A DNA stretch of 64,000 bases, taken from Ostreococcus lucimarinus. Lineage: Eukaryota. Shown one piece after another: positions 6,125 through 47,022 of this stretch. How positions within the stretch are numbered: position 1 is the stretch's first letter; every line of letters starts with the position of its first letter. A program made the position numbers and the translations under genes. Location: the NCBI GenBank assembly GCA_000092065.1, contig CP000591.1, one strand, 5' to 3'. The notes beneath the pieces are model-generated. The model worked only from the letters and a program-made list of their open reading frames with translations, made no database searches and had not been told where the DNA came from.

Positions 6125-8581
6125 TTACAATCCCTCGCGATTCTTCGCTTGGTCATCCTCTTCTAGCGCCACGAGCGTGGCGTCCACGAGTCTCTCGAGG
6201 ACTTGGGATAGACGCGCGATGCGCCCGCCTTGCTCCGCGTTCTCCTTGACGGCGCTCGGCAACGTCTCCACCGTTTCCGCGATTTTCGTCGCCAGCGAGC
6301 TGATTTTCGATTCTATGATGGTTCGAATCGCTTTGCGTTCGCGCTCGAACGACGCGCACTTGGCCTCGAGCTGTTCGCATCTCGCGCTGGCGTCGTTTCG
6401 GCGTTGGGCGGTGAGCGCTTCCAATCGCAAGCGCACGTTATCGGCTTCAATCTCTTGTAAGGAATCTCGCTGCTCGTTGTTTTGCGTCTCAAGATACGCG
6501 ACTTTCGCACGCAGAAGTTTCAACTCCGACATCGCGTCGTCGCTTTTCCCGTTACCCGATTCCGATTCGCTTTCGCTCCCGACCCATCCGCCGAGCGCGG
6601 CGCGAAGACCGCCGCTCAACTGCGCGTGGAGTTGCGTCTCCTTCACCGCCGCGCGCTTGATACCGAATAGCTCCGCCGTTTTCGCATCTAGAGCATCCTC
6701 GAGTAGAGCTTTCTGCTCTTCGCACGCGCGAACTTGATCTTGCAATGCGTCGATGCGTTCGTCGCGTTCGCGCAGTCGAGCCGTGAGGCCGAGCATGATG
6801 TCGCGCTGCTTCAACAACACTCCCTTGTACCGTTCGACCTCGCGCGTGGAGTCACCAGCCTCGGCGCGCTCGGCTTCGATGCTTTTAAGCTTTCGCTCGT
6901 ATTCCGCGCGTATCGCAGCCACGCTCGAGGGGTCGTCGCCGCCGAGCAATTGACTCTGCATCTCGGAGATGCGCTTTTCTAAATTTCTCTTCTCTTGCTT
7001 TTCGATGAGAAATTCTTGCGATCGCATTTCGAGTTCGGTGATCGCGCGCAGCTTATCCGCCTCTGCGCGGCGTCGTTGCTCGTCCACCTCGAGTAATCGA
7101 CGTTTATCCACTAAATCTTTCGTACGTGTGTCCAACTCGGTGCGCAACTGCCTGAGCTCGCGCTCGTACTTGCGCAACAGCGACTTTTGATCTAAATCCT
7201 CATTCAGCGTCGCCGTATTCTTAATCTCCTTCGCACGACTGGCGAATTTCAACGTCGACAGCGACTCCGCGAAAGCTTCGAGCGCGGGCGAAACCATGGC
7301 GATGACGGTGGTTATGCAGTTACCGCCGAGTGAATCTTCCAAAATGCGCGTCAATTTGGAATCACGATACGGAATGTGCGATCGACCTTTGCTATCCGTC
7401 AAGGCGCTGATGACGTTGCCGAGCGCGCTCAGGCTTTGATTAATCTTTTTACTCTCGTCCAGCCGTTTTCCCGTGGCCCCGGTTAACGACACGCGCTCAG
7501 ATCCCGCCAAATCAACCAAGTTAAGTTTACCGACGGTGATGCTCTGTCGCTGCGCCGGAGCGCCCTCACCCACGTCCACACCGTCCACAGGTTCGTCATC
7601 CTCGGTCGTGCTGTGTTCTATGATGATGGTGAATACGGCGTGCGATCGCGACGAGAGCTCGTTCATCTTCGTCGACCCCGTCGCTCGAAGTTGCGCCCCG
7701 CGCTCGAGCAAACCGTAAATTTCACTCGGCGTCCGCACGACCCATTCCGATTGACCTTCCACGAACACGCCGCGCTTCTTGTCCTCGCGAATGTTCAAAT
7801 TCGTTCTCTCGGGTTTCAACAAATCGCTCACCGTCTCGTTGTAAATCTGCAAGTAACTCACGCGCACGAGATACTTTGACCGCGCGTGCGAGTCCTTGGC
7901 GATGTAATCGAAGATGTCCTCAATCGCGCGCGGAATGATCCCCCTTTCGCGCCCATCCGTCACCGGCGCGTTCCCCGGCAACCCAAACCGCTGTTGTCCA
8001 TACGCCAACATCGTTCCTCGATCACCCTCCATCGTGTACGTCTTCCCCGTCCCCGTCTGTCCGTACGCCAACACCGTGGCGTTGTATCCTCGCAGCGCGT
8101 TCAGCGTCGCCGGCTTCGCGCTTCTCGCGTACACCTCCTCCTGCGTCGCCCTCTCGTCGTACACCGCGTCGAATCCAAACTCATACGTCCTCTGTCGTTC
8201 GTGCGCGCCGTCATCCGCGAACGTCCCTCCCTCCCCGTTCCCCGCGAGCGCTCGCTCGCCGCCCGCGCTCGCCGCGCACGCCTTCCCGCCGCGCGTCGCC
8301 GCCACCGCGCGTTGATACGCCCCTCGCCCCTCGCGCGTCTCTCGCCGCAGCGCGGGTCGCACGCGTATCATCACCTCCACGTTCGACGTCGACGTCGACG
8401 TCCCTCGCGCCGCGTCGTCGTCCCCCGTCGCGCGTCGGTTCGAACGCGCGGCGTCGGCATCCGCATCCGCATCCGCATCCGCATCCGCATCGTCGTCGTC
8501 GTCGTCGTCGCGCGCGTCGTCGTCGCGATTCCGATCTCGCGCGTCGTCGAGCGCGCGACGCTCGACGTCGAGGGCGTCCAT
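6125..8581 (-). CDS. Kinesin motor protein (N-terminal motor, long coiled-coil tail)
   Basis: P-loop GQTGTGKTYTM, switch I SSRSHAVFTI, switch II LVDLAGSE, neck and heptad-rich tail. The track ORF extends to 8947. I start at the ATG at 8581 (MDALDVERRALDD) because upstream of it lies a non-coding-looking tandem repeat. The (GCATCC)5 tract near 8458-8490 encodes DADADADA. Confidence 0.85.
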   Translation of the reverse strand: MDALDVERRALDDARDRNRDDDARDDDDDDDADADADADADADAARSNRRATGDDDAARGTSTSTSNVEVMIRVRPALRRETREGRGAYQRAVAATRGGKACAASAGGERALAGNGEGGTFADDGAHERQRTYEFGFDAVYDERATQEEVYARSAKPATLNALRGYNATVLAYGQTGTGKTYTMEGDRGTMLAYGQQRFGLPGNAPVTDGRERGIIPRAIEDIFDYIAKDSHARSKYLVRVSYLQIYNETVSDLLKPERTNLNIREDKKRGVFVEGQSEWVVRTPSEIYGLLERGAQLRATGSTKMNELSSRSHAVFTIIIEHSTTEDDEPVDGVDVGEGAPAQRQSITVGKLNLVDLAGSERVSLTGATGKRLDESKKINQSLSALGNVISALTDSKGRSHIPYRDSKLTRILEDSLGGNCITTVIAMVSPALEAFAESLSTLKFASRAKEIKNTATLNEDLDQKSLLRKYERELRQLRTELDTRTKDLVDKRRLLEVDEQRRRAEADKLRAITELEMRSQEFLIEKQEKRNLEKRISEMQSQLLGGDDPSSVAAIRAEYERKLKSIEAERAEAGDSTREVERYKGVLLKQRDIMLGLTARLRERDERIDALQDQVRACEEQKALLEDALDAKTAELFGIKRAAVKETQLHAQLSGGLRAALGGWVGSESESESGNGKSDDAMSELKLLRAKVAYLETQNNEQRDSLQEIEADNVRLRLEALTAQRRNDASARCEQLEAKCASFERERKAIRTIIESKISSLATKIAETVETLPSAVKENAEQGGRIARLSQVLERLVDATLVALEEDDQAKNREGL

Positions 8582-8626: not shown

Positions 8627-8908
8627 GCCGACCGACCGACCGACCGACCGACCGACTGGTGTACAAACAGTGACACGCGAAATAACCATCGCCGCGACGC
8701 CACTGATGGGAATCTTCACGTATCGAAGAGCCGACCGACCGACTGGTGTACAAACAGTGACACGCGAAATACCCATCGCCGCGACGCCACTGATGGGAAT
8801 CTTCACGTATCGAAGAGCCGACCGACCGACTGGTGTACAAACAGTGACACGCGAAATAACCATCGCCGCGACGCCACTGATGGGAATCTTCACGTAATGA
8901 AGAGCCGC
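8627..8908. repeat. (CCGA)6 followed by an 87-bp tandem repeat x3 in the kinesin/AsnRS divergent intergenic region
   Basis: Units begin at 8654, 8741 and 8828 (gactggtgtacaaacagtgacacgcgaaataaccatcgccgcgacgccactgatgggaatcttcacgtatcgaagagccgaccgacc). The differences I noticed are aataacc/aataccc and, in the last unit, gtatcg/gtaatg. Confidence 0.9.
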
Positions 8909-8945: not shown

Positions 8946-10637
8946 ATGGCGGACGCCCTTGCCTCGACGCTCGACGGCCTGACGCTCGACGGCGCGAGGC
9001 ACAGGTACTCGAAGATCTACGACCGCGTCCCGATCGAAAGCGTGCTCGCGACGGCGGAAAAAGACGCGATCGGACGGACGATCGTCGTCGGTGGCTGGGT
9101 GAAGACGGGACGCGAGGCGGAGCGAGGCGCGCTGCTGTTTCTCGCGGTGAACGACGGGAGCGGACCGGGAAACCTGCAGGTGGTGGTGAAATCCGAGACG
9201 TACGCCGAGCTGGGGGAGCTGAAGACGACGGGGACGAGCGTGGTGATCGAGGGCGAGCTGCGGGCGCCGCCGGAGAGCGCGAAGGGGCAGGCGATCGAGA
9301 TGCACGCGACGAGGGTGCTGATGGTCGGAAAGTGCGACGGCGCGACGTATCCGATCGCGAAGAAGAAGCAGACGCTGGAGTTCCTGCGGGAGAAGATTCA
9401 TCTGCGACCGAGGACGAACACGATCGCGAGCGTGGCGCGGGTGCGGAGCGCGCTCGCGTACGCGACGCATACGTTTTTTAACCAAAATGGGTTCTTGTAC
9501 GTGCACACGCCGTGCGTGACGCAGAGCGATTGCGAGGGAGCGGGAGAGATGTTTCAAGTGACGACGTTGCTGAGCGAGGCGGAGAAGCCGGAGGCGTTAG
9601 AGGCGACGGTGAAGCCGGAGGAGATTGAGGCAAAGCGCGCCGAGGTTTCCGCGTGCGGCGGAGAGATCAAGTCGATGAAGGAGAGTGGGGCGGATTCCAA
9701 GGAGGTGAAGAAGGCGGTGAAGACGTTAGATAAACTCAAGCAAGAGCTGTCGCAGATGGAATCGGCGGCGCGCAAGATTGGCGGGATTCAACGCGCCGAA
9801 GACGGTTCCATCGATTACTCCCGCGATTTCTTTGGCGGCAAGTCGTACTTGACCGTTTCCGGGCAGTTACAGGTGGAAACGTACGCGTGTGCGCTCTCTA
9901 ACGTGTACACTTTCGGTCCGACGTTCCGTGCGGAGAACTCGAACACCACCAGACACTTGGCTGAGTTCTGGATGATTGAACCCGAGCTCGCGTTTGCCGA
10001 CTTGAACGACGACATGCAGTGCGCGGAGGATTACGTCAGGTTCTGCTGCAACTACCTCCTCGAGAACTGCTACGGCGACTTGGAATTCTTTGCCAAGATG
10101 TACGACAGCACGTGCATCGATCGCGTGAAGGAAATTGCGACAACGCCGTTTGGTCGCGTCTCGTACACCGAAGCCATCGATCTCTTGGAAAAAGCCGTCG
10201 CCGACGGCAAGGAGTTCGTCTACCCAGTCTCTTGGGGTATCGACTTGGCCACCGAACACGAGCGCTGGCTCGCCGAGGAACACTTCAAGAAACCCGTGAT
10301 CGTTTACAACTACCCGAAGGACATCAAGGCTTTCTACATGCGCTTGAACGACGACAACAAAACCGTCGCCGCGATGGACGTCTTGGTGCCAAAGGTTGGC
10401 GAACTCATCGGCGGTAGTCAACGCGAGGAGCGATTGGACGTGTTGGAACGCCGAATGGTGGAATGTGACCTCGTGCCGGAAGAATATTCTTGGTACTTGG
10501 ACCTGCGTCGTTACGGCACCGTCACCCACGCCGGTTTCGGCCTCGGCTTTGAACGCCTGATTCTTTTGTGCACCGGGATGGAGAATATTCGCGACGTCAT
10601 TCCGTACCCGCGCTGGCCGAACAACTGCATTAGTTGA
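8946..10637 (+). CDS. NARS: Asparaginyl-tRNA synthetase (class IIb)
   Basis: ATG at 8946. OB-fold N-terminus, SDCEGAGEMFQVTTL, FFGGKSYLTVSGQL, motif 2 FRAENSNTTRHLAEFWMIEPE, motif 3 GFGLGFERLIL. An extra insertion of about 85 aa lies at about 9570-9830. Confidence 0.92.
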   Translation: MADALASTLDGLTLDGARHRYSKIYDRVPIESVLATAEKDAIGRTIVVGGWVKTGREAERGALLFLAVNDGSGPGNLQVVVKSETYAELGELKTTGTSVVIEGELRAPPESAKGQAIEMHATRVLMVGKCDGATYPIAKKKQTLEFLREKIHLRPRTNTIASVARVRSALAYATHTFFNQNGFLYVHTPCVTQSDCEGAGEMFQVTTLLSEAEKPEALEATVKPEEIEAKRAEVSACGGEIKSMKESGADSKEVKKAVKTLDKLKQELSQMESAARKIGGIQRAEDGSIDYSRDFFGGKSYLTVSGQLQVETYACALSNVYTFGPTFRAENSNTTRHLAEFWMIEPELAFADLNDDMQCAEDYVRFCCNYLLENCYGDLEFFAKMYDSTCIDRVKEIATTPFGRVSYTEAIDLLEKAVADGKEFVYPVSWGIDLATEHERWLAEEHFKKPVIVYNYPKDIKAFYMRLNDDNKTVAAMDVLVPKVGELIGGSQREERLDVLERRMVECDLVPEEYSWYLDLRRYGTVTHAGFGLGFERLILLCTGMENIRDVIPYPRWPNNCIS

Positions 10638-10730: not shown

Positions 10731-11417
10731 CTACCCGCGTCGTCGAAACGCCGCGATGTTGGATTTCAGCGGCGGAAACTGAAAAATCACCACACCAGCG
10801 CGCTCATCGTAAAACAACACCGGAAACGTCGCGATTGCATCGACGAAGCCAAGCTTCCCCACCGCGTTGATCGCCTTATCCACCACACCAGAGCCGGGAC
10901 CCGCTCTCGGCTCATCCGCCGACGCTCCGGCGCCGACCCAAAATGTGTCGAACCCGATGCGACACGCCGGTCGAACCATCCCCTCGCAAACTCGCGACTC
11001 CGCCGCCTGTACCGTTCCGCTCGCGCTCAACCACCCATCCGGGACGAACCGCCCTCGATGTCGCACGTCCGAAGAAATCGTCCCGTCGCGTATCACGTAT
11101 CGCAGCGGGTGAAACAGAACCCCCAGCGGCGTCGCCAATCGAACGATGTGCGGCGCGGCAAACACCCTCCAGTCCCCATCCCCTCGCACCGCGTTATCGA
11201 TCCCACCGTCCACGCGCGCGCTCGCGATCAGAGCGTCGATATCGCGCTGGATTTCGCTCGGGACGCCGCGATGAAGTTCCCAACTCGACTCGTCTTCGGC
11301 GTACTCAACGACGCGTTGGAGCGGCGCGGCGACGTCAGGGCGCGGGGTCGATCGACAGCGACTTTTACGAGCGCGACGGGGCGCCGCGACGACGCGCGAG
11401 GGCGCGAGGGCGCGCAT
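10731..11417 (-). CDS. Hypothetical protein with a basic, transit-peptide-like N-terminus
   Basis: Track ORF 10731-11450 starts at TTG; the first ATG is at 11417 (MRALAPSRVVAAPRRARK). The sequence is non-repetitive with ordinary coding composition (FPVLFYDERAGVVIFQFPPLK). No family recognised. Confidence 0.55.
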   Translation of the reverse strand: MRALAPSRVVAAPRRARKSRCRSTPRPDVAAPLQRVVEYAEDESSWELHRGVPSEIQRDIDALIASARVDGGIDNAVRGDGDWRVFAAPHIVRLATPLGVLFHPLRYVIRDGTISSDVRHRGRFVPDGWLSASGTVQAAESRVCEGMVRPACRIGFDTFWVGAGASADEPRAGPGSGVVDKAINAVGKLGFVDAIATFPVLFYDERAGVVIFQFPPLKSNIAAFRRRG

Positions 11418-18908: not shown

Positions 18909-19247
18909 GAGCGCGCCTCCGTACGCGCGTCCGCCGTCCGCGGCGCGCTCGACGCCCGGCGCGTCCCAGTCCGCCGTCGCCGTCGCGGGCGCGTCCCTCC
19001 GAACACCATCGTGGCCCGTCTGCGATCGCGCGAAACCGCGGCGCGCGTCAGTCGGCGAACGCGCTCGCGGTTCGCGCGATCGGCGCGTTTTCGCGCGTTT
19101 TCGCGCGCGTCCTCGCGCGCGCGCACCCCGAGCAGCAGCGTCTCGCGCTCGCTGCGGTCGCTCGACGACATCGCGCGACGCGCGCGACACAGAGTGACGC
19201 CGCGCGCGCGGCGTCGAGATCCGCTCGGCGCGGCGACGACGGCGTCG

Positions 19248-19491
19248 ATGACGTCCGCGTCGATGGTATCGACGCTCGCGGCGCGCGCGAGAGCGAACGT
19301 CGCGCTCGCGGTCGTCGCGATCGCGATCGCACTCGCGTTGTTCCCGCTGCTCGCGCCGCTCGCGCTGGGCGGTTTCGTCGTCGCGCGCGCGGTGCGCAGG
19401 GACGCGCGCGAGGAAGAGGACGTTTCGGTGAAGCCCGTCGCGGGGACGGGCGGGGACGTCGCGGTGCGAGAGAGGGCGCGGGTGGAGGTTG

Positions 19492-19551
<60 letters not shown>

Positions 19552-22133
19552 CGGTGGCGCTCACGGGCTCGGCGGCGATGCTGGCGAAGATGCGGAAGAG
19601 CAGCGCGTTGACTGGAGAAAAACGCGCGACCGCGGCGCAGGGTGCGAGCACGAGCGCGAAGGATGGTGTGGATGAGACGGCGACGAACGCGAAAGCGACC
19701 CGAACGTTTATATTGCACGGCGGCGAAGCGGCGTCGCAAATCGCGAAGGATTTGGCCGCGCAGGCGGAGAAAGAGCACGGAATTGCGTTGAATGTGATGA
19801 CAATGGATGATTTCAGAGACGTAGAGTTCGATAAAGAACCCTGCGCGGTGGTTTTCGTGGTCGAGACGGTAGAGAACGCGCAGCCGGCGGAAGCTGCGGG
19901 ATCTTGCGTGCGCTTCTTCAATCGGAAACGTAAGGAAGGGACGAATCAGGCTATGCTGGCGGGGAAGATGTCATACGCGGTTTTAGGACTCGGTGATACA
20001 AACTTGTTACTCGATCGCCAGACGACGACGGCGAAAGATTGTAACCAGGCTGCGCAGACGTTGGATTCGGCGCTCGCCGCTCTCGGCGGCGCTCGAATCG
20101 TCCCCCGCGGCGAGGCAAACGACGCCGTGGGTTTGGACGAAGACGTTGTACCGTGGGCCAAGTTGCTTTTCCCAAAATTGTCTGAAGTTCACAAAGGGAT
20201 TGAGGCGAAAAAAAACGCAAAGCTATGCTTCTTGTACGGCTCGCAGACCGGTAACGCGACGGAAATTTGCAAAAATCTCGCCGCCGAGGCGAGCGAGAAG
20301 GGGTACCCCGTGGAGGTGTGCGCGATGAATGAGGTCGAGCCAGAAGATGTCATCAAACCTGGCGCTGTGATTACGTTCGTCGTATCCAGCACCGGCGACG
20401 GTGACGCTCCGGATAACTGCGACACATTCTTCACTCGCCTCAAGCGCAAGGCAAAGAAGGAAAAAGGCGAGGGCGCCATCGGCGTCCAGTACGCCGTCCT
20501 AGGACTGGGTGATCAAAACTACAGCGCGTTCATGGCTGTGCCGCGTCAGTTCTCGCAAACGATGGAGAACTTGGGCGCGAAGTGTTTCGCTAAGCGCGGT
20601 GAATGCGACGACACACTTGGTTTGTACGAACAAGTTGACGCATGGACGAGCACGTTTTGGTCTCATCTCGAAGTCGCTCGAGGAAACTCACACAAGTTGC
20701 GCGAGGGTGAGACAATCGTGGAAGACGCTAATGCCGCCACTGAAGCTCCAAAAGGCGATTCGAAGCCACCGCAAGCGGCTGCGCCGGCGAAGAAAGTCGA
20801 AGGCGTGCCACCACTACCAATCTGCCGATCTGAAGTGCAGTGGCTGCCGAAAACGACAGAAGTGGTTGCTAATCGCGTCGCGCCCGGTCCAGATTCCGAA
20901 GGTGCATACACCGTCTCCTCGCCGTACATGGCGACTATTCACAAGCGTGAGGTACTCACAAACTTGAAATCCGATCGGCGAGTGTTGCACATGGAGTTTG
21001 ATCTCGGATCAAGTGGGATCTCTTACAAGCCGGGAGATTCCATTGGCATCGTACCGCAGAACGACGCCGAGCTGGTTCGAGCCATCGTCGATCGGCTGGG
21101 TCTCGATCAAGCCGCCATTTTCACGCTGAATTGGAAGAAAGGTGACACGAATGAACACGCGACTCATCCGTTGCCGCATATTCACACCCCGTGCACGGTA
21201 AAGAGTGTGTTCACGAATTATATCGACATCACGGGATGTCCGCGTAAGTCGCTCCTTCGCGTTCTCGCCGAACACTGCGGCAACGCGGAGGAAAAAGACG
21301 CCCTCTTGCACCTTTCATCGCGTGGTGGTCGAGCAGAATACGAAACACAGATTCGCGCGCAGTCACCGACGCTATTGACGCTCTTGAACAATTATCCGAG
21401 TTGTTGTCCTCCGTTAGCCGAGCTTTTAGATGCCCTCTCTCCGCTCGCGCCGAGACTGTATTCGATCACATGCGCGCCCGAGGTGGCACCAACAACGCCG
21501 TCGGTTGCCTTCAGTGTCGTGCGGTTCCAGGTACCCAGCGGTGAACATCGCCTCGGCGTCGCCACGAACTGGCTCGACGAGATATCGGTCGACGACAAGT
21601 GCGAGCACAAAGTCCCGGTGTACATCAAGCCAAGCTTGAAGTTCGGCCTGCCCGAAGACTCGAGCGCGCCGCTAGTGATGATTGGTCCGGGTACCGGCGT
21701 CGCACCATTCCGCGGTTTCCTCCAGTCCAGACGCGCTAAAGCACAAAAAGGCGGTCGATTATCTGAAGCTATGTTGTTCTTCGGCTGTCGCAAGGCAGAT
21801 GAGGACTTCCTGTACGAAGCCGACTGGAAGAGTTTCACCGCCGATGGCTCGCTGACAAAGCTCGTCTGCGCCTTTAGCCGCGAGACCGCAGAAAAGGTAT
21901 ACGTGCAGCACAAAATTGAAGAGCACGCCACCGAAGTCGCGCGCTTAATCTCTGAGGGCGCTTACGTCATGGTATGCGGCGACGGCGCGCACATGGCCAA
22001 GGATGTCCACGCCGCCCTCGTCCGCGTCGTCGCTCAAGCCGGCGTCTGCGGCGTCTCTGACGTCAAAGCCGCCGAGGCTCTCCTCGCCGACTTCACTAAA
22101 TCCGGTCGTTACGTCCGTGATATTTGGAGCTAA
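19248..22133 (+). CDS. Membrane-anchored diflavin reductase (NADPH-cytochrome P450 reductase / methionine synthase reductase family) with two tandem flavodoxin-like modules
   Basis: Track ORF 19011 starts at GTG; the first ATG is at 19248 (MTSASMVSTLAAR). TM VALAVVAIAIALALFPLLAPLALGGFVV, poly-Thr16, a degenerate flavodoxin-like module (TFILHGGEAASQIA...YAVLGLGDTN), a canonical FMN module (LCFLYGSQTGNATE...YAVLGLGDQNY), FAD/NADPH domains (RLYSITC, GPGTGVAPFRGF, VMVCGDGAHMAKDV), and the C-terminus GRYVRDIWS. Confidence 0.88.
19503..19550 (+). repeat. (ACG)16 microsatellite encoding poly-Thr inside the reductase CDS
   Basis: An uninterrupted acg run, in frame with the CDS, translated as T16. 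Confidence 0.95.
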
Positions 22134-22356
22134 CGCACGCGCGTTCGTATTGTTTAGATTTTAATTTCTCATTTCATTTCATTTCATTCCACTCCACTCT
22201 CGTTCCGTTTCACCAAACTCCTGCGGGCGAGTTGGGTGTTACGCGTACACGCGCGCCCCTCAGACCCGCGCGCGCTTCGCCGCGGGCTAAAATGCGCCGT
22301 CGTGATCGAGGAAACGACCCTCCGATGGTGTCGTCGACGTTCGTCGTCGTCCTCGT
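20619..22356 (+). repeat. Segmental duplication, copy 1 (1,738 bp)
   Basis: Matches 27064-28801 at a constant offset of +6445 with no indel that I could find. It covers the last 1,515 bp of the reductase CDS, the 158-bp spacer and the first 22 codons of the GH1 gene. Confidence 0.95.
22292..22356 (+). pseudogene. 5' ghost of the GH1 beta-glucosidase gene (first 22 codons only)
   Basis: MRRRDRGNDPPMVSSTFVVVLV is identical to 28737-28801. After 22356 the sequence diverges (ASKFRAC, then stop). Confidence 0.85.
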
Positions 22357-22381
22357 AGCAAGCAAGTTTAGAGCTTGCTAA

Positions 22382-22498
22382 CTTTTGACTGTAGAGGAAC
22401 ACGCCAAGTTCGTCGATGGACTTACGAAGCTGGGCAAAGGCAACTGGCGTGGGATCATTCAACACTTCGTTCAGTCTCGAACGCCGACGCAGGTCTAA
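22382..22498 (+). pseudogene. Isolated fragment of a SHAQKYF-class (DIV/RAD-like) MYB/SANT domain
   Basis: My translation in a frame the track does not report: [38 protein letters not shown]-stop. This corresponds to the WTxEEHxxFLxGLxKxGKGxWRxIxxxFVxxRTPTQVASHAQKYF pattern truncated before SHAQKYF. There is no ATG, and a stop lies immediately upstream (22379-81). Confidence 0.6.
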
Positions 22499-22522
22499 TC
22501 ACACGCGATAGATCGGTCGAAC

Positions 22523-23386
22523 TTAAGTCTGGGGCATTTCAATCTCTCGGTCCAAAGCTTCCGCGCCCAACGCCGAATATCTACATCGTGAGCGTCGTGC
22601 ACGTGTTGAAACTGCCCACACTGACACCATGGTAGTCGCCAACAAGCCCAGCGTTACGTAGACAAGTGTCAAACAACTGAAGTAACTGTTTTGAGGCGAA
22701 CGCTCTGAGGCGAAACATAGAGCGCCGTGCAAATCTTCATCAGGTTCGAGCGTGATGTTACGTTGAAGAACGAATACGTATCGCTTGAAGGGCATTGATG
22801 CGCCACCTGAAGCTGTGATATGAAATTCCACCGTCTCAATCGAAGCAGATTTCTCAGGTGCGCACCAAATTAAGTTGTGGACGGTGGCTTTGCGCGTCGT
22901 GTACATGCGTCGACCAGAGCAGGCGGTGGCCGGCCTGTTCACGTTCCCATTCAAAAGCACGCCTTGATCGTGAAAGGATCCCGCAGAAGCGGTGATCAGC
23001 ATCATCGAATTCGGGTCTTCGTGCGATGCCGCGAGACCCAAGCGGCAGCCATCGCAATATTCTCGTTTACCGGGAGGGAACGTCCACGCAGCGGGGATCT
23101 GCCTCGTGGGTTCATTTTCGTCGTACTGCGCATCCTCAACATCAGTGTGGTTTGCCCAACTCAGCAGCACACTCGTGTTTGTGGCATCTATCGGTGCTCC
23201 GTGACCAGCAGCACGACGTGTGGGGTGTACGCGAGCCATCCCACCTTCGCAACGCGCGTCGAGGCGCAGTTCGGTCGGATACGACTCCACCAAAACCAGT
23301 CGCCAATCGAAGATTGCCACGGCGACGGCGGCGCATAGGCGCGCCGGATGCCGCAGACACATGTCGCCGCGTCGACATCGGTTCAT
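22523..23386 (-). CDS. Type I membrane protein with a possible Reeler/DOMON-like beta-sandwich ectodomain
   Basis: ATG at 23386, signal-like ARLCAAVAVAIF, and C-terminal TM CLTLVYVTLGLLATTMVSVWAV. The ectodomain pattern C-x2-M-x-V-H...HG...ITASAGSF...C...VHNLIWCAPEKS..VEFHITASGG resembles my memory of the Reeler-domain pattern. The family call is low confidence. Confidence 0.6.
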   Translation of the reverse strand: MNRCRRGDMCLRHPARLCAAVAVAIFDWRLVLVESYPTELRLDARCEGGMARVHPTRRAAGHGAPIDATNTSVLLSWANHTDVEDAQYDENEPTRQIPAAWTFPPGKREYCDGCRLGLAASHEDPNSMMLITASAGSFHDQGVLLNGNVNRPATACSGRRMYTTRKATVHNLIWCAPEKSASIETVEFHITASGGASMPFKRYVFVLQRNITLEPDEDLHGALCFASERSPQNSYFSCLTLVYVTLGLLATTMVSVWAVSTRARRSRCRYSALGAEALDREIEMPQT

Positions 23387-23455
23387 AGGGTTGTAGCGCC
23401 CGTCCTGGTCCTAGCCCGTCATGTAGCGTTGACGCGCGTGTTCTGCCCCACCCAA

Positions 23456-23483
23456 GTCGTCTGTCGTCTGTCGTCTGTCGTCT
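23456..23483. repeat. (GTCGTCT)4 heptanucleotide repeat in the divergent promoter of the insert genes
   Basis: gtcgtct x4, then the degenerate unit gttgtcg. Confidence 0.9.
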
Positions 23484-24042
23484 GTTGTCGGGGGGTGTCC
23501 GTTCGCGACGGACAACATACCAGCAAAGCTATGACTCAAAGGCTTTGTTCGGTCACGCGCGCGCACGCTCGCACGACTGAGCGCCGTCGACTCCTGATTC
23601 CACACGTTCAGCGTCGTCGGAATCATACGGGAAACCCGGCAGAGAAGCGCGGGGAAGTACGCATCGCGTTCGCGCGACACTGTCCGACGTAAAACGCGTA
23701 TAATGAGACATTTTCCAATCAAGTTTTGTAAGAAGGTTGAAATATACTTAGTAAATAATTATGCGAGGCCCAATAGTTCTTTTAAATTATCTAATACGAC
23801 GTGCGACCGACCAAATCCGACTAATGCACGCGGCAAGTATGGAGGAGATATTTACATGGAGGATTATCCACTAGATATTTTTTGGATATTTACTCCGCAT
23901 CGAACGAGTTACGACTCAACAATAGAGGGACCGTTGCGCGTGGCCGGCACGTGCCGGCCACGCGCCGCCACGTGCGCGAGGTCCCTACGCCCGTCTCTCC
24001 GCAAGCATCACACGACGACGCGAGGAATTCTACGCGAAGAAG

Positions 24043-25713
24043 ATGCAAATCGAACGAAGGAAACGAAATGCGCGAGCGCTCTGCGCACTTGTTGTTTCTG
24101 CGACGCTTGCGAACACCGCGAGCGCGCAATTAACATACATCGCAGGATACGAGCCACGCTCCAACGTCGTCCAACATTCCCAAGTCGACTTGGACATAAG
24201 GGATATCATTAGTTCTTTCCCGAAGTGGAAGGGTGGAGACAGCATTTACAATGGCGGACTTCTGAACGACTGCACCACAGTGGCAGGCGCGTGCAACTGG
24301 AATGGGACCAGTAGTCTATACCCAACATTGTGGGACGGCACTTGTACGCACACCTGCCCTGCTGCTGACTCGGCAAATCCGGGCCAAAAGTGCACTTTAA
24401 GCGCGGCGGATGCATGTTTGTCCACTTACGGTATTTATAAGTATGGTAAGGGATCGTTCAAGGGGAACAACAAGGATGACGCGGCGTCGATGCGGACGCT
24501 TCGCGGGTTTGCAACGAAACTTGGTGATAAGGGTGCCTCAGCGCGTGTTGCCGCGAAAAACAACCCGTTTATCAACAAAATGAATAAATACTGGGCGAAA
24601 CAGGGGCTGAATGAATTGACTTGGGGTCAAGATATCATCGAAGCTGCTTTCAAAGGTACTTGTGTCAAGAACGGTAACTCGTGTGTAAAATCAGGGGGAG
24701 TAAATCTTCTCGATTTTGGCACGGTCGGAAACGACTTCAGGGTGGAAGTGATAAAGAAAGGTATTATTTACTTGAACATCTTTCCTTACGTCATTTGGGA
24801 ATTTCAAGACGCTATCAACGACTGCCATGGTGGTGACTTGGGCGCGAACGATGAAATTCCCGGAGGAGGTTCAGTACACGCTTGGGATGAAGCCGTAGCC
24901 TTTTACACTGGTTCGCTCGAGGGCATCTTAAAAGGCGGTAACAATGGCCTCGCCTCATGCGATGACGGTAATTGTGAGTTGCAATTTCAACTGTCAGATT
25001 ATCGCTGCACGAACTTCGGTACCTGCACCGCCGATGCTGATGGTGACCCGTGGAGTGGATACTCAAAAAATAATGAAGAGATCTTCAAACTCTTTCAACA
25101 AGGTGAAGGTGAAATTACTGAAGCCGCTGCAAGCTCCAATACTGCGGCGACGAAATGTGACTTGCCGGATCGCACCCACGAAAAGGCTGTTACGAAAATG
25201 CTTGTTCCTTTCGTGCAAGGATGCATGAGGTACTTGTGGAAGACAAAAGATTCGCAGAAAGCTAAGGAAGCAGGCGAGCTCTTTGCGTTTGCATCCGCTG
25301 CACTTCCTTTTATCGATGCGGTAGACCCTGTCGCCGCTACTAAGTTGTTCACACGTGCGTGGAAACTAGATTTCACTACTTACACGTATGAAGAAACTAA
25401 GCAGGGCATCGAAGGCACCCTTTCGAGACTCGGTGCTGGTGAGGGCATTGGTACAATATCTTGCGCTGACATTGGCGACCTCGTTGACAGCAGTGATCAA
25501 CTGCTCGCTGCTGGCTGCACGGATCCCTCATCTCCCTCATCTTCCAATAATGACACCACTCTCGGGCTGGGTATTGGGATTCCACTGGGTGCCATCGCAA
25601 TCACCGCGTTGGTATTTGTCGTGCTTTTGTGGCGAAAGAGCTCAGCAAACAGCAAGCGAGTCGAAGAGTTAACCATGCAGCTGAGAGGTCCTGGTAAGGA
25701 CTTCTATCCGTGA
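24043..25713 (+). CDS. Secreted, C-terminally anchored Cys-rich protein; candidate FEA1/ISIP2a (phytotransferrin)-family iron-uptake protein
   Basis: ATG at 24043, signal peptide ALCALVVSATLANTASAQ, a Cys-rich ectodomain of about 480 aa containing GGSVHAWDEAVAFYTGSLEG, a Ser/Pro linker, TM LGIGIPLGAIAITALVFVVLLW and a short basic tail. The architecture matches phytotransferrin-type proteins. The family call is from memory and needs an HMM search. Confidence 0.6.
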   Translation: MQIERRKRNARALCALVVSATLANTASAQLTYIAGYEPRSNVVQHSQVDLDIRDIISSFPKWKGGDSIYNGGLLNDCTTVAGACNWNGTSSLYPTLWDGTCTHTCPAADSANPGQKCTLSAADACLSTYGIYKYGKGSFKGNNKDDAASMRTLRGFATKLGDKGASARVAAKNNPFINKMNKYWAKQGLNELTWGQDIIEAAFKGTCVKNGNSCVKSGGVNLLDFGTVGNDFRVEVIKKGIIYLNIFPYVIWEFQDAINDCHGGDLGANDEIPGGGSVHAWDEAVAFYTGSLEGILKGGNNGLASCDDGNCELQFQLSDYRCTNFGTCTADADGDPWSGYSKNNEEIFKLFQQGEGEITEAAASSNTAATKCDLPDRTHEKAVTKMLVPFVQGCMRYLWKTKDSQKAKEAGELFAFASAALPFIDAVDPVAATKLFTRAWKLDFTTYTYEETKQGIEGTLSRLGAGEGIGTISCADIGDLVDSSDQLLAAGCTDPSSPSSSNNDTTLGLGIGIPLGAIAITALVFVVLLWRKSSANSKRVEELTMQLRGPGKDFYP

Positions 25714-26896
25714 GAGGTCCTGGTAAGGACTTGAGTCTTCTCTATGAGGTGCTGCTCCGATAGGCTACTACATTGAGCCCAGCACATTGAGCCCAAGAGC
25801 GAAGAGCTCGTTTAATTTAATGCACATACTACTTGAAATACCGTCTCACCATTTGCCGCCGTTTGCCGCCGCCGCGTTGATCGAGCATGACTTGGACGTG
25901 TTACCGAACGAAACGTAACGAGCCAGGTGGCGTTCGTAGGGTATTGAAATGCAGAAATTTGTATCCGTGAGTCGCAGCTAACTTTGAGCGCGACACGACG
26001 CGAGGTGCGCGCGAAGGCAAAAAGTTACATATTTTACCGTTTTTTTTCGAAATCACGTGTAGTGCATTATGGTACCACCTAAAACATGGTGGCTAATACA
26101 CACAGCACCACACTATAGATAAACACGACATATAATATGTACAGAACTACATTGAGCGGCTTGCCAAGCGTGGCCCACAGAAAGTTCTGGTTCGAGTCGC
26201 GCGTTTGTTGCGCGCAGCAGCTTTCCTTGCACTGCGAGCTCGAGTTTTCGCACGCTGGCTCAGTACTCTCTGTTCGTAAGGCGCGCGTGAAGGCTCTAAT
26301 CGAACGGAACTCCAGACGCGCGGCGTGTGGCATCGTTCGTCGCGCGCCGTAGGGCCACACACGTGCACTCCTCGCAGCAGAGACTACGCGTCTCCGCTCA
26401 CGTTCAGAGAACGAAGGGCGTGCGACGCAGTCTCGTCGGCACTGGAGCATTCTGAGGGCGCGCGCGAGGGTGACACTTGCTTACGCTGATGTTCTCGGCG
26501 GAGGTCCCGCGTACAGAGCGTCGCCGCGACGGCAAGTGACATGCAGCCACTCGAAGTCGTGCGACGAGCGGCGACGACGCGGTTGTAACGCACACGCGCC
26601 GGCCCCGGGCACGAGACGAAACCGAAAAGACGGTTCGTAGAAAAACGCGCGTGTTTGGCACGCGCCCGGTGAAACGTGAGCGAAAAACCGAAAAGTATAC
26701 CTATAGGGTGTAGCGCTTCGATGTATGATGCAAATGGAATTACGGTACTTTATACGAATGCCCCTAACGACGAGACGATACCGATTGGGTAAAGTTCTGG
26801 CGACCCGCCGCTACGCCCAACACAAATTGGTCCCACAGATGCATTCCCCAAAGTGAGGGACTGGAATCAAAGGCGGGCAAGAAAACCGCCGCATGG

Positions 26897-27065
26897 CTCG
26901 CACCCCGTGCACTGCCAGCGTCGCCCGAGGCCACGCTCCGCGTGAAAGTCGGCGCATCGCGTGCGAGCGCTGCCGCATAACTCACACCCCGTGTGCCGCC
27001 ATTATCGTCGCCTGAGGCCACGCCCCGCGAGAAAGTCGGCGGATCGCGTGCGAGTGCCGTCGCGG
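26897..27065. repeat. Imperfect 84-bp tandem repeat x2 abutting the right breakpoint of the insert
   Basis: 26897-26980 and 26981-27065 are about 80% similar by eye (ctcRcaccccgtg...gtcgccYgaggccacgcYccgcgWgaaagtcggcgSatcgcgtgcgag...). Confidence 0.75.
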
Positions 27066-28578
27066 TTTGTACGAACAAGTTGACGCATGGACGAGCACGT
27101 TTTGGTCTCATCTCGAAGTCGCTCGAGGAAACTCACACAAGTTGCGCGAGGGTGAGACAATTGTGGAAGACGCTAATGCCGCCACTGAAGCTCCAAAAGG
27201 CGATTCGAAGCCACCGCAAGCGGCTGCGCCGGCGAAGAAAGTCGAAGGCGTGCCACCACTACCAATCTGCCGATCTGAAGTGCAGTGGCTGCCGAAAACG
27301 ACAGAAGTGGTTGCTAATCGCGTCGCGCCCGGTCCAGATTCCGAAGGTGCATACACCGTCTCCTCGCCGTACATGGCGACTATTCACAAGCGTGAGGTAC
27401 TCACAAACTTGAAATCCGATCGGCGAGTGTTGCACATGGAGTTTGATCTCGGATCAAGTGGGATCTCTTACAAGCCGGGAGATTCCATTGGCATCGTACC
27501 GCAGAACGACGCCGAGCTGGTTCGAGCCATCGTCGATCGGCTGGGTCTCGATCAAGCCGCCATTTTCACGCTGAATTGGAAGAAAGGTGACACGAATGAA
27601 CACGCGACTCATCCGTTGCCGCATATTCACACCCCGTGCACGGTAAAGAGTGTGTTCACGAATTATATCGACATCACGGGATGTCCGCGTAAGTCGCTCC
27701 TTCGCGTTCTCGCCGAACACTGCGGCAACGCGGAGGAAAAAGACGCCCTCTTGCACCTTTCATCGCGTGGTGGTCGAGCAGAATACGAAACACAGATTCG
27801 CGCGCAGTCACCGACGCTATTGACGCTCTTGAACAATTATCCGAGTTGTTGTCCTCCGTTAGCCGAGCTTTTAGATGCCCTCTCTCCGCTCGCGCCGAGA
27901 CTGTATTCGATCACATGCGCGCCCGAGGTGGCACCAACAACGCCGTCGGTTGCCTTCAGTGTCGTGCGGTTCCAGGTACCCAGCGGTGAACATCGCCTCG
28001 GCGTCGCCACGAACTGGCTCGACGAGATATCGGTCGACGACAAGTGCGAGCACAAAGTCCCGGTGTACATCAAGCCAAGCTTGAAGTTCGGCCTGCCCGA
28101 AGACTCGAGCGCGCCGCTAGTGATGATTGGTCCGGGTACCGGCGTCGCACCATGCCGCGGTTTCCTCCAGTCCAGACGCGCTAAAGCACAAAAAGGCGGT
28201 CGATTATCTGAAGCTATGTTGTTCTTCGGCTGTCGCAAGGCAGATGAGGACTTCCTGTACGAAGCCGACTGGAAGAGTTTCACCGCCGATGGCTCGCTGA
28301 CAAAGCTCGTCTGCGCCTTTAGCCGCGAGACCGCAGAAAAGGTATACGTGCAGCACAAAATTGAAGAGCACGCCACCGAAGTCGCGCGCTTAATCTCTGA
28401 GGGCGCTTACGTCATGGTATGCGGCGACGGCGCGCACATGGCCAAGGATGTCCACGCCGCCCTCGTCCGCGTCGTCGCTCAAGCCGGCGTCTGCGGCGTC
28501 TCTGACGTCAAAGCCGCCGAGGCTCTCCTCGCCGACTTCACTAAATCCGGTCGTTACGTCCGTGATATTTGGAGCTAA
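27064..28578 (+). pseudogene. 3' ghost of the diflavin reductase gene (FAD/NADPH half only, no flavodoxin module, no in-frame ATG at its 5' end)
   Basis: Track ORF 27067-28578 starts at TTG. An in-frame stop lies at 27013-15 and the first ATG codon is only at PYMATIHK. It carries GVAPCRGF where the full gene has the conserved GVAPFRGF. Confidence 0.7.
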
Positions 28579-28801
28579 CGCACGCGCGTTCGTATTGTTT
28601 AGATTTTAATTTCTCATTTCATTTCATTTCATTCCACTCCACTCTCGTTCCGTTTCACCAAACTCCTGCGGGCGAGTTGGGTGTTACGCGTACACGCGCG
28701 CCCCTCAGACCCGCGCGCGCTTCGCCGCGGGCTAAAATGCGCCGTCGTGATCGAGGAAACGACCCTCCGATGGTGTCGTCGACGTTCGTCGTCGTCCTCG
28801 T
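27064..28801 (+). repeat. Segmental duplication, copy 2 (1,738 bp)
   Basis: See copy 1. The differences I found are T27162 versus C20717 (synonymous Ile) and G28154 versus T21709 (Phe to Cys). Confidence 0.95.
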
Positions 28802-30515
28802 CGGCGTCGTCGCCCGCGCGAGCGCGCAGACCCACGCGCACCAACACCATCGAGGCGAAACGAGCCACGGCGACGGAAACTTTGTCACCTTCCCACCGTC
28901 GTTCGCGTTCGGCGTCGGAACGTCGGCGTGGCAGATCGAAGGAAACGGTGGTGATCGCCCGCGATCGGTGTGGGACGCGTTCGTGAGCGAACTAGGAGAG
29001 GAGAAGAGAGTGGAGGCGGAGCGCGGGATCGGCTTTCACGAGCGATACGCGGCGGATGCGCAAATGATGGCGGATGCGGGAGTGAAACATTTCAAAATGT
29101 CCCTGAGCTGGCCGAGGTTGATGCGCGCCGACGGGAGCGCGATCGATGAAGGGTTCGAGTATTATCAGAACGTTTTCGGGGCGCTACGCGAGCGAGGCGT
29201 GGAACCGCACGTGACGCTGTTTCACTGGGACACGCCGATGTGGTGCTGCGCCAACGAAACGATCGCGAGCGGGCGTGGGAGCGTGTGCGAAGGAGCTTGG
29301 GTGAAGGATGAAATCTTGAAAGATTTTGAGAAGTACGCGGATGCGGTGTTTAGTAGACTCGGGAAGGGGATAAAATATTGGACCACAATTAGTGAGCCAA
29401 AAACCGTCGCAGAGATGGGCTACGGTGCGGGCCTTCACGCGCCTGGGCGTCGGAGCGTGGAAGAACAACTTAAAGTGGGGCATAATATGTTGCGTGCACA
29501 CGCTTTGGCGGTGGCGCTCTATAGGGAGAAATATTCCCAGTTTGGAGGGAAACTTTCAATCAATTTGAATAGCGCTTGGGTCGAGCCGGCGTCGGATTCG
29601 CCGGACGACGTGCGTGCGGCGGCAAACGCGATGGATGAAGAGCTTGGATGGTTTGCCGATCCTATTTATAAAGGTGACTATCCGGCGAGCATGCGGGCGA
29701 GATTGGGGAGCTTTCTTCCGGAGTTCACCGAGGAGGAGCGCGTGCTCGTGAAAGGGAGCGTCGATTACTTTGCGCTCAATCACTACACGTCCTACTTCGC
29801 CAAGCATGTGACCGACGCGCAAGCTTCGTCGCAGCTTGGTTTGAGCGGCAGACCTCAGCCGTGGGAGATCACACTAGAGTCAGAAAAGAGCAAGAAACCA
29901 ATCGGCAAGGAGGCGCAAAGCGACTGGTTGCACATCGTGCCGTGGGGATTAGAAAAGGTTTTGCTGCACATCAAGGACAGATACGACGATCCAGCGATCA
30001 TGATCTCGGAGAATGGCGTCGATATCGCCGAGAGGGGCGATATCGCGGAAACTCTGGACGACACAACGAGAGTCAAGTTTATCGATGCCTATCTCGGAGC
30101 CGCTCGCGAGGCGATGCGTAAAGGCGCAAACGTTGTGGGGTACTTTTATTGGTCGATGTTCGACAACGTCGAGTGGGTGGATGGGCGATCGAAACGATTT
30201 GGTTTGGTTTATGTCGATTACGACGGCAAGTACGGCGAAAAGATGAAGCGCTATCCAAAGAAATCTCTCGAGCACTTCTCCTCCTACATGCGAGGAGAGC
30301 ACGCCGAAGAACCAACCCTCGGTGCCGCGCGCGTGCGACACTCGCTCGAAGACTCTTTCGTTCAAGTCGATCCGAGGCGTCAGGGCGAAATCTTCGCATT
30401 GCAAGGCATGGCGTTGACCATCGCCTGCGTCTACGCCGCGGCAGCGGCGTTCGCCGGCGGCGTCAAAATCGTCGAGCAAGACGTCGAGCAAGACGAACGC
30501 TCGTCCCTCGTCTGA
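28737..30515 (+). CDS. BGLU: GH1 beta-glucosidase with signal peptide and C-terminal TM anchor
   Basis: Track ORF 28569 starts at TTG inside the reductase 3' end; the first ATG is at 28737 (MRRRDRGNDPPMVSSTFVVVLVGVVARASA). FPPSFAFGVGTSAWQIEGN, LFHWDTPMW, acid/base TISEPK, nucleophile ISENG, YFYWSMFDNVEW, and TM LTIACVYAAAAAFAGGV. Confidence 0.9.
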   Translation: MRRRDRGNDPPMVSSTFVVVLVGVVARASAQTHAHQHHRGETSHGDGNFVTFPPSFAFGVGTSAWQIEGNGGDRPRSVWDAFVSELGEEKRVEAERGIGFHERYAADAQMMADAGVKHFKMSLSWPRLMRADGSAIDEGFEYYQNVFGALRERGVEPHVTLFHWDTPMWCCANETIASGRGSVCEGAWVKDEILKDFEKYADAVFSRLGKGIKYWTTISEPKTVAEMGYGAGLHAPGRRSVEEQLKVGHNMLRAHALAVALYREKYSQFGGKLSINLNSAWVEPASDSPDDVRAAANAMDEELGWFADPIYKGDYPASMRARLGSFLPEFTEEERVLVKGSVDYFALNHYTSYFAKHVTDAQASSQLGLSGRPQPWEITLESEKSKKPIGKEAQSDWLHIVPWGLEKVLLHIKDRYDDPAIMISENGVDIAERGDIAETLDDTTRVKFIDAYLGAAREAMRKGANVVGYFYWSMFDNVEWVDGRSKRFGLVYVDYDGKYGEKMKRYPKKSLEHFSSYMRGEHAEEPTLGAARVRHSLEDSFVQVDPRRQGEIFALQGMALTIACVYAAAAAFAGGVKIVEQDVEQDERSSLV

Positions 30516-45896: not shown

Positions 45897-47022
45897 GACG
45901 CGCGCGCAGGCGTCGATCGGCGTCGATCGCGCCGTCGCGCGCGCGCGCGCGACGACGCGAACGCCGCGGTGCGCGCGCGCGGCGTTCGCGTCGCGCTCGG
46001 ACGACGCGCCGTGCGTCGTCGACGACGAAGACGCCGAGGCGAAGCGAATAAAACAGCGCGCGCACCGAAAACGGAACCGCGCGCGGTGCAGGACCCGCGC
46101 GAACGAGCGCGTGGACGCGTTGCTCGAGAAGTTTCGCGCGCTGCGACCGCTCGAACGCGCGAACGACGATGGATCGTGGGAGACGGTGTACGCGGAGGAG
46201 GAGGAAGACCGGGACGACGGCGTCGACTGGGACGGGCTGCCGCCGGGCGCGGACCCGTTCGGGACGAATAAGAAGGGTGGACGAGAGCGAGGGATGCGGA
46301 AGCGGAATCAAGTGATGACGTTCGTGAAACACTTGCGAGCGCTACTTTCGCTGCGAGGGCGAAGGGAGATAAAGAGGTGCGTCGATTTTGGATGCGGTAC
46401 GGGGAACGTTTTGATGACGTGCGCGGCGACGTTTCCGGAAATCGACTTCGTCGGCGTCGATTTGAACGCGACGAGCATTGAGATTTTAAACTCGAGGATT
46501 CGGAAATCGGGGTTGACAAACGTCAGCGCGGTGGTCGGATTGATCGAAGACGGCGATACGTTCGGGGCGGACTGCGCGTTGGCGCTGCACGTGTGCGGGA
46601 GCGCAACGGATCGAGTGTTAAACAGCGCGGTGCGAGCGAGAATCCCGTTCGTCATCGCGCCTTGTTGCGTGGGCAAAGTTCAAGAGGGTGGGATGCGAAG
46701 CTTGAATCGCATGCGTAACGATTTGATTTCGCTCGATAAAATAGAAGACATCGAGCGGCCGAGGTCGAGGCTGATGCGAGCCGCGGGTTTCGATTTCGAA
46801 GCGTACATGTCTGCCGCGACTTTGGCCGATTGGAGCGGGCACCAGGGCGTGGATCCGAGCGATCCGAACGAGCCTCTCGCCGCGCTTCCGAGACGCGCGA
46901 AGAGCGCCATCGAGGCGGATCGTGGGGAGTTTGCACGAGAGCACGCTTACGACGTGACGTTGCACAAGATGCCCGCGCAAAGCGGCATTCGCGATGACGT
47001 CTTGGTCGGGATCCCACTTTGA
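45895..47022 (+). CDS. Class I SAM-dependent methyltransferase (Methyltransf_32/METTL25-like)
   Basis: VDFGCGTGNVLMTCA (SAM motif I), GVDLN, ALHVCGSATD...IPFVIAPCCVGK. Start is ATG 45895 (MTRAQASIG) or 45763. Confidence 0.7.
   Translation: MTRAQASIGVDRAVARARATTRTPRCARAAFASRSDDAPCVVDDEDAEAKRIKQRAHRKRNRARCRTRANERVDALLEKFRALRPLERANDDGSWETVYAEEEEDRDDGVDWDGLPPGADPFGTNKKGGRERGMRKRNQVMTFVKHLRALLSLRGRREIKRCVDFGCGTGNVLMTCAATFPEIDFVGVDLNATSIEILNSRIRKSGLTNVSAVVGLIEDGDTFGADCALALHVCGSATDRVLNSAVRARIPFVIAPCCVGKVQEGGMRSLNRMRNDLISLDKIEDIERPRSRLMRAAGFDFEAYMSAATLADWSGHQGVDPSDPNEPLAALPRRAKSAIEADRGEFAREHAYDVTLHKMPAQSGIRDDVLVGIPL

Follow-up and report, generated by a model that had tools for sequence, protein, structure and literature searches.

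In a 64,000-nucleotide stretch of Ostreococcus lucimarinus DNA (contig CP000591.1 of GenBank assembly GCA_000092065.1; this whole stretch is referred to here as the window), a foreign segment of 4,707 bp, the insert, lies between two direct copies, R1 and R2, of a 1,738-nt sequence, and just inside its left junction stands an orphan frame of 38 codons that resembles a MYB domain. This frame is probably a non-functional remnant of a SHAQKYF-class MYB gene that had decayed long before the rearrangement seen in the window and was carried into its present place as passive cargo of a cassette. The cassette is also found, in metagenome contigs, at another site; below, ‘W-type’ denotes the junction context of the window, and ‘D-type’ the cassette at the different locus, with a different left flank.

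The frame at 22382–22498 translates exactly as an earlier note on this DNA had given it, and the assignment to a MYB/SANT-type repeat made there holds, both curated cut-offs being exceeded: the fragment scores 31.9 bits with PF00249 (Myb_DNA-binding; cut-off 24.4, E = 1.5e-7) and, when read through the stop codon, 32.4 bits with TIGR01557 (myb_SHAQKYF; cut-off 29.3), covering profile positions 7–50 of 57. A word-indexed protein search with the remnant padded with read-through residues gave no candidate; an exhaustive HMMER search with the remnant recovered 973 relatives. The best single-domain matches are P0014, an 82-aa metagenome open reading frame (ORF) that is the D-type remnant itself, and P0020, an intact protein of 168 aa. 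The gene for P0020, on contig L009, is 84.3% identical at the DNA level to window positions 22387–22507 (121 nt, ungapped), and the two proteins are 83% identical and collinear over W...TPTQV-x-SHA. The codon alignment (L009/window) runs TGG/TTG-ACC/ACT-GTG/GTA...CAG-GTC-GCA/TAA-TCG/TCA-CAC-GCG, and the homology ends after it. The earlier note had suggested seeking a parental MYB gene with Reeler-like and FEA1-like neighbours; P0020 is the closest intact gene found, and neither neighbour lies within the 2.1-kb contig that carries it.

The likeness of the remnant to the SHAQKYF class (DIV/RAD/CCA1-like, single-repeat MYB proteins, with P0020 as the nearest intact member) consists of the profile scores and the collinear sequence; it differs from this class in several ways. 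There is no ATG, as had been pointed out before, and a TAA at 22379–22381 closes the frame upstream. The first conserved Trp is lost, TGG in L009 being replaced by TTG (Leu) at 22385–22387 and by TTT in the D-type contig L007. The in-frame TAA at 22496–22498 stands in the place of an Ala codon of the intact relative, and the SHAQKYF motif is not intact (TPTQV-*-SHAIDRS in the window versus TPTQVASHAQKYF in P0020), with QKYF and the C-terminal part gone; the D-type copies are frameshifted at this point. With these two stop codons and no start codon, the remnant belongs to no complete gene in the window, and the same holds for L007 and L008 when all frames are read. The fragment reads as a pseudogene piece, not as a member of the family that could bind DNA. 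It does not, however, stop short of the SHAQKYF helix, as the earlier note had it: the S-H-A codons, at 22499–22507, follow the TAA and are collinear with those of the intact gene. A suspected splice donor (TPTQ|gtctaa) fares no better, given that GTC TAA TCA CAC GCG has its codon-by-codon counterpart in GTC GCA TCG CAC GCG of P0020. Because this alignment is ungapped and the L009 gene is one uninterrupted ORF that spans the TPTQ|GT site, the GT at 22493 belongs to a Val codon and no intron starts there.

The same orphan remnant is present in all 11 D-type contigs as well as in the 7 W-type contigs. Common to both classes are the upstream TAA (...FRAC*), the loss of the first Trp, a TAA in front of SHA and a missing QKYF; because the D-type copies share both the remnant and its disabling features, the MYB gene was already dead at the source. 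The D-type copies also carry a 4-nt duplication, GTCT, which neither the W-type copies nor the intact L009 gene has, and therefore the window copy branched off before this duplication spread. These observations bear directly on the model of the earlier note, in which the rearrangement cut an intact MYB gene while copying it and a palindrome was produced by hairpin-mediated repair at the new junction. Proximity speaks for the model: only 28 nt separate the remnant from the junction, a perfect 8-bp stem begins at the junction, and the changes specific to the window fall within 13 nt of it and strengthen the stem. Against this, all 11 D-type contigs carry the same truncated remnant together with the upstream TAA, the right arm of the stem (GCTTGCTA) and the sequence TAGCAA, the disabling changes are common to both classes, and the MYB homology begins at 22385, 28 nt inside the junction, rather than at 22357. 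Breakage of a MYB gene by the event is largely refuted, and the model as a whole is highly improbable.

The architecture of the locus (Table 1) is that of a target duplicated around a foreign segment. R1 and R2 differ at two positions only (20717 and 21709; offset 6445), and the first base outside the duplication is 22357. The diflavin reductase of which R1 contains the 3' half is complete (ORF at 19011–22133, with the flavodoxin, FAD-binding and NAD-binding domains of Pfam), and the complete GH1 gene that starts in R2 occupies 28737–30515. In a contig of Ostreococcus tauri (L011, assigned to this species because its DUF829 protein clusters with XP_003082030.1), the diflavin reductase (CPR) gene ends at 1335 and the GH1 gene starts at 1404, with 68 nt between them and neither repeat nor insert; downstream of GH1, the DUF829 and GH77 genes follow in the same order as in the window. 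Because the two genes are adjacent in O. tauri, at an unduplicated empty site, the R1-insert-R2 arrangement is derived.

Table 1. Coordinates of the duplicated target, the insert and the features within them, in window positions.
Feature	Position	Strand	Description
R1, direct repeat copy	20619..22356	+	3' half of a diflavin reductase (CPR-like) gene that is complete here, spacer, first 65 nt of the GH1 coding sequence
Orphan GH1 start copy	22292..22381	+	29-codon ORF MRRRDRGNDPPMVSSTFVVVLV|ASKFRAC*, crossing the junction (frame translation; ATG at 22292)
Junction hairpin	22356..22380		8-bp stem TAGCAAGC (22356-22363) / GCTTGCTA (22373-22380), 9-nt loop
Inserted cassette	22357..27063		4,707 bp; D-type contigs cease to match at ~22357-22367 and 27064
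MYB remnant, SHAQKYF-class, decayed	22385..22507	+	~41 codons; PF00249, TIGR01557
287-aa ORF	22523..23386	-	No Pfam match; homologues metagenomic only
FEA1-like gene	24043..25713	+	556 aa; Pfam Fea1, E = 7.6e-11, 42.1 bits
R2, direct repeat copy	27064..28801	+	Promoterless 3' half of CPR (27067-28578), spacer, start of the complete GH1 gene

The repeat-insert-repeat order could, in principle, be an assembly artefact, the true state being a single copy of the repeat plus a separate or circular molecule that consists of the repeat and the insert. At 1.7 kb, the repeat exceeds the length of short reads, the short-read unitigs end 30 nt into it on both sides (Logan unitig L001 equals window 22327–27093 exactly), and the order of the copies is not resolvable from a de Bruijn graph alone. 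Nevertheless, such an artefact is extremely unlikely. Two positions distinguish R1 from R2 in the window, and the JGI contig L024, which covers 19516–22920 at 99.7% identity, unites the unique 5' part of the CPR gene, R1 and the beginning of the insert. These junctions recur in no fewer than 7 independently assembled contigs, which stem from different projects; the left junction is crossed in identical form by Tara, ENA, JGI and Logan contigs (L003, L004, L012, L019, L024 and L037) and has this form in every wild contig that crosses it, with 7 contigs in the W-type class.

The second context of the cassette is represented by 11 metagenome contigs (L007, L008, L013, L014, L015, L017, L018, L027, L028, L038 and L039), all of which share the left flank ...CCGGAAACGCTAAACCC|TAGCAAAAATCGAG, also given as ...CCGGAAACGCTAAACCC|TAGCAAAAATCGAGTTTTAGAGCTTGCTAA. 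Both to the left and to the right of the cassette, the five contigs that were compared over their full length (L007, L008, L015, L017 and L018) are collinear, so the D-type context is a single locus. Its flank includes a 447-aa gene (5214–6557 in L008). The homology between the window and the D-type contigs ends at the two junctions, on the left at 22357–22367 and on the right, for L007, exactly at 27064, the preceding 365 nt being identical but for one base. Thus, the part of the earlier note's claim that held the insert to be copied from another locus stands in so far as this is an ectopic 4.7-kb insertion with a counterpart elsewhere, although no MYB gene was broken in the process. The D-type cassette, of ~4.6 kb, comprises the FEA1-like gene and the 287-aa gene and is bounded in L007 by a 53-nt imperfect inverted repeat (83% identity; 6419–6471 and 10936–10988) that contains one plant-type telomere-like unit, AAACCCTA. 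This repeat has a 20-nt core that L015, too, carries at the two cassette ends (2127–2146 and 6971–6990). The MYB remnant is situated immediately inside one of the repeat arms. The insert in the window is a sub-segment of this block, starting 18 nt inside the left arm and ending ~275 nt before the right arm, which supports the direction from D-type to window-type and disfavours transposition via those repeats.

Compared with the D-type contigs, the cassette is a mosaic, with flanks that are 95–100% identical and a central 1.8 kb that is only 54–67% identical; this low-identity centre (23757–25556 in comparison with L007 and L015) consists of the promoter and most of the coding sequence of the FEA1-like gene. 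Within the W-type class, the identity of the 287-aa protein ranges from 82% to 100%. The pattern resembles that of conserved flanks around a hypervariable core. A stretch of ~900 nt near the right end of the insert (26157–27063), in which no gene is recognisable, is 98.5–100% identical to L007 and L015, unlike the sequences of these two contigs outside the cassette, which differ from each other by 5–10%. This stretch has no Pfam or Rfam match, and L017, a D-type contig of greater divergence, gave no match to it.

The product of window positions 8946–10637 is identical, residue for residue, to the asparagine--tRNA ligase XP_001420326.1 of O. lucimarinus CCE9901, and this exact protein was found in three sequencing runs, SRR1179203, SRR23274481 and SRR847307. 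The sequences looked up from D-type contigs are not recorded in any of these runs, and the W-type gene was recovered from SRR1179203 and SRR23274481. In SRR23274481, a unitig runs unbranched across the right junction although L007 is identical up to that point, which argues against an identical D-type copy in this sample.

The structure is best accommodated by a scenario in which the 4,707-bp sub-segment of the D-type cassette would have been placed at the boundary between the diflavin reductase and GH1 genes in the O. lucimarinus lineage, the 1,738-bp tandem duplication of the target would have arisen together with the insertion, yielding R1-insert-R2, and the MYB remnant would have travelled as passive cargo. 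Three routes to this outcome can be envisaged. Template switching of the type known as microhomology-mediated break-induced replication (MMBIR) or fork stalling and template switching (FoSTeS) would depart from the chromosome at T22356, continue on the donor as template and resume on the chromosome at G20619, 1.7 kb further back; alternatively, staggered breaks in sister chromatids would be joined end to end with the capture of a donor fragment; or else, a circle carrying the repeat and the insert would integrate by a single crossover. Template switching and end-joining capture would require fewer steps than the integration of a circle. By three-way comparison, microhomology amounts to 1 nt at each junction, T22356 on the left, which is common to the recipient, the donor-type and the window sequences, and G27064 on the right; a match of this size is expected by chance in about one quarter of junctions.

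The FoSTeS/MMBIR mechanisms produce tandem duplications with a templated insertion at the duplication junction. The locus in the window shares with these the direct 1,738-bp duplication of the target, the foreign sequence placed exactly between the copies, the minimal microhomology and the presence of a donor-type locus elsewhere. It departs from them in that the insert is long (4.7 kb) and includes two whole genes, and the single nucleotide of microhomology fits classical end joining equally well.

At the left junction, the perfect 7-bp inverted repeat that the earlier note had placed at 22357 is indeed there: AGCAAGC (22357–22363) and GCTTGCT (22373–22379) are fully complementary, the entire segment reading AGCAAGC-AAGTTTAGA-GCTTGCT. 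In addition, T22356, the last duplicated base, pairs with A22380, which makes a stem of 8 bp that overlaps the duplication. Folded as single-stranded DNA, the W-type hairpin has a free energy of -7.9 kcal/mol (z = -3.2; one of 200 shuffled sequences folds as well), compared with a weak -3.3 kcal/mol (z = -0.5) for the D-type equivalent. Perfect 7-bp stems with loops of 3–12 nt start at 0.37% of the positions in the window and at 0.17% of those inside the insert; with loops of 0–20 nt, the fraction is 0.8% for the window. The probability of finding such a stem at exactly the named base is therefore below 1%; when a tolerance of 5 nt to either side and loops of 0–20 nt are admitted, it rises to ~8% for one breakpoint and to about double that over both junctions. 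Chance is an unlikely explanation for a stem at the named base, yet the coincidence is not extraordinary given a tolerance of a few bases and two junctions.

Most of the palindrome is inherited. The D-type sequences read TAGCAAAAATCGAGTTTTAGAGCTTGCTA at this site, and the right arm, along with six of the eight bases of the left arm (TAGCAA), is present in all D-type copies, within the arm of the 53-nt repeat. The changes specific to the window that perfect the stem are clustered in the junction-proximal 13 nt, where the donor AAATCGAGT is replaced by GCAAG, lengthening the stem from 6 to 8 bp; over the next 150 nt, only three events separate the window from the closest D-type allele, L013. The proposed role of a hairpin or template switch in the repair is therefore only partly borne out: the junction-proximal changes make some junction-associated synthesis or editing plausible, but the right arm and TAGCAA were already donor-type. 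The stem-perfecting change probably arose during the formation of the junction. A D-type allele with TAGCAAGCAAGTTTAGAGCTTGCTA would speak against the palindrome having been made in part at the junction, and TAGCAAGCAAG is the form of interest in D-type alleles for dating and polarising the event. The data do not separate a breakpoint at T|AGCAA with junction-associated editing from one near 22367 with ~10 nt of inverted, locally templated filler.

In the latter version, the donor breakpoint would lie near 22367, the left arm (~10 nt, AGCAAGCAAG) would have been added by fold-back copying of GCTTGCT in the manner of polymerase theta, and the resemblance to the donor TAGCAA would arise merely from the complementarity of both to the one right arm. 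This is conceivable but on balance unlikely. Polymerase-theta-mediated end joining leaves filler DNA, that is, templated insertions, and the junctional stretch resembles such filler in that the exact reverse complement of AGCAAGC lies 9 nt from it and the changes are confined to the junction-proximal 13 nt. Furthermore, the blastn homology to every D-type contig ends at 22367 and not at 22357, the 10-mer is found nowhere else in the window or in the L007, L014, L015, L017 and L018 loci that were searched, and the right junction is clean. However, TAGCAA occupies the homologous position in the donor-type sequences, so that inheritance and a small indel yield the same bases, and, as read from the sequence, the terminal bases offer no primer-template pairing, hence no clean register, for a snap-back.

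Several observations weigh against the reading of the 38 codons as long-dead cargo brought in from the D-type locus. A faint sign of constraint on coding comes from the frame itself: it has no internal stop in the aligned W-type and D-type sequences, and one lineage has a 9-nt deletion that is in frame. The variable sites include 6 synonymous and 4 non-synonymous ones, compared with an expectation of 71–76% non-synonymous (binomial P ~0.015–0.04). The flank genes of the D-type locus have been found in metagenome contigs only (three cluster look-ups returned matches among metagenome proteins alone), and a donor within the same genome is conjectural. R1 and R2 differ at 0.1% of their sites, compared with 2–6% among the cassette alleles within the W-type class, so that, with regard to the age of the event, the repeats may be homogenised by gene conversion, or else polymorphism is unusually high in the cassette. 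Finally, the structure by itself cannot separate template switching, end-joining capture and the integration of a circle.

The properties of the frame would also be expected if the remnant were still functional, either within an unannotated spliced gene, as one of its exons or a short ORF, or through read-through of the stop from the duplicated GH1 start. Such a function could further invoke an AG at 22393–22394, a GT at 22493–22494, and the GH1 ATG at 22292, which shares the frame. It is nonetheless very unlikely. The homology to a gene with an uninterrupted ORF passes straight across both putative splice sites, the first Trp is lost, and the recognition helix (SHAQKYF) is destroyed by the TAA in the W-type and by the 4-nt frameshift in the D-type. 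Moreover, beyond the 28-nt hairpin region the W-type and D-type contexts have no upstream sequence in common, and therefore no shared upstream exon is possible. A chimeric spliced ORF that would lead from the GH1 start into the remnant was considered and rejected: the GT sites in the GH1 fragment are all in phase 0, the AG at 22393–22394 needs phase 1, and the product would be out of frame. Given the small numbers, the strength of the disabling features and the lack of upstream sequence common to the two classes, the synonymous excess is read as chance or as constraint on something else, for example, the 3' end of the 287-aa gene; we infer that the remnant has no present function. The remnant lies antisense within the 3' flank of that gene, 15 nt from its stop codon.

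The 53-nt inverted repeat that bounds the D-type cassette is reminiscent of the ends of a terminal inverted repeat (TIR) DNA transposon, but the likeness goes no further. The window copy does not end where the repeat ends, the right arm is absent, and the duplication of 1,738 bp is unlike a short target-site duplication of fixed length; five D-type copies are at one locus, and the other six have the same left flank. Neither a target-site duplication nor further copies of the repeat were seen, the motif occurs neither elsewhere in the window nor in IMG/VR, and a Pfam scan of four ORFs in the insert revealed no transposase domain. A viral origin of the cassette was considered as well and rejected, there being no relative of the 287-aa protein, the FEA1-like protein or the repeat motif in IMG/VR; the sole match to the DNA pattern (L026) is a chance one, in a phage lysozyme gene. 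IMG/VR contigs L029–L033, one of them labelled GVMAG, encode SHAQKYF-class MYB proteins with the same TVEEHAKF-type start; these genes were rejected as the parent of the remnant, being only 55–64% identical.

A different role for the remnant can be imagined if the FEA1-like/287-aa pair is a discrete, inverted-repeat-bounded iron-uptake cassette with a hypervariable core that is exchanged or relocated between sites or lineages in wild Ostreococcus. The MYB remnant would then be a vestige of the former regulator gene of the cassette, and the weak synonymous excess would reflect a residual role, for instance, at the 3' end of the 287-aa transcript. This proposal is rather improbable. In O. tauri, Ot-Fea1 is a surface protein that is iron-loaded and strongly expressed, and Myb-like factors of this alga respond to iron limitation (PMC4855317). 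The cassette is therefore biologically relevant; these findings say nothing on the MYB remnant.

With the remnant decayed beforehand and the palindrome mostly inherited, neither reports how the break was made, so that the finding of the two at the junction is in itself of little weight. The rearrangement is an ordinary structural rearrangement. Its value for the genomics of picoeukaryotes is modest: it is a clean natural case in which a two-gene, iron-uptake-related cassette came in together with a 1.7-kb duplication of the target, while O. tauri retains the empty site and relatives carry a donor-type locus. As such, it can serve to follow the relocation of nutrient-acquisition genes by structural variation within a eukaryotic genome that is very compact.

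A number of further features of the locus deserve mention. The orphan GH1 start (22292) and the MYB remnant (to 22498) are in the same reading frame, with a single TAA between them. The duplicated GH1 start and the spacer upstream of it (22134–22291, with the putative promoter) point into the cassette; if the copied promoter is active, its transcripts would run opposite to the 287-aa gene, in antisense. No exact match to the 592-aa GH1 product was found, and a homologue search indicated that the deposited GH1 model begins at Met12. The promoterless 3' half of the diflavin reductase gene in R2 is open over 503 codons and matches the functional copy at all but two positions, a near-identity that suggests gene conversion or a recent origin. 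The 287-aa ORF, the putative Reeler-like gene of the earlier note, has no Pfam match at E<=0.1, and its homologues come from marine metagenomes only. A Rfam scan of 20000–29500 yielded nothing beyond one chance match (E 0.85). The G+C content, ~60% for the window, falls to 50–55% at 22–26 kb.

In the divergent intergenic region upstream of the FEA1-like gene, there is a perfect 30-nt palindrome, GCGCGTGGCCGGCACGTGCCGGCCACGCGC (23936–23965), whose centre is a CACGTG G-box/E-box, followed 5 nt downstream by a second CACGTG (23970–23975); both lie 70–105 nt upstream of the ATG. This palindrome interrupts the short-read unitigs, and L005 terminates at it. Tandem repeats are present just upstream of the 287-aa gene (23456–23489; 4.9 copies of the 7-nt unit GTCGTCT) and, farther away in the window, at 8644–8907 and 47000–47181 (three copies of an 87-nt unit, 98–99% identical, and two copies of a 91-nt unit, 100% identical, respectively).

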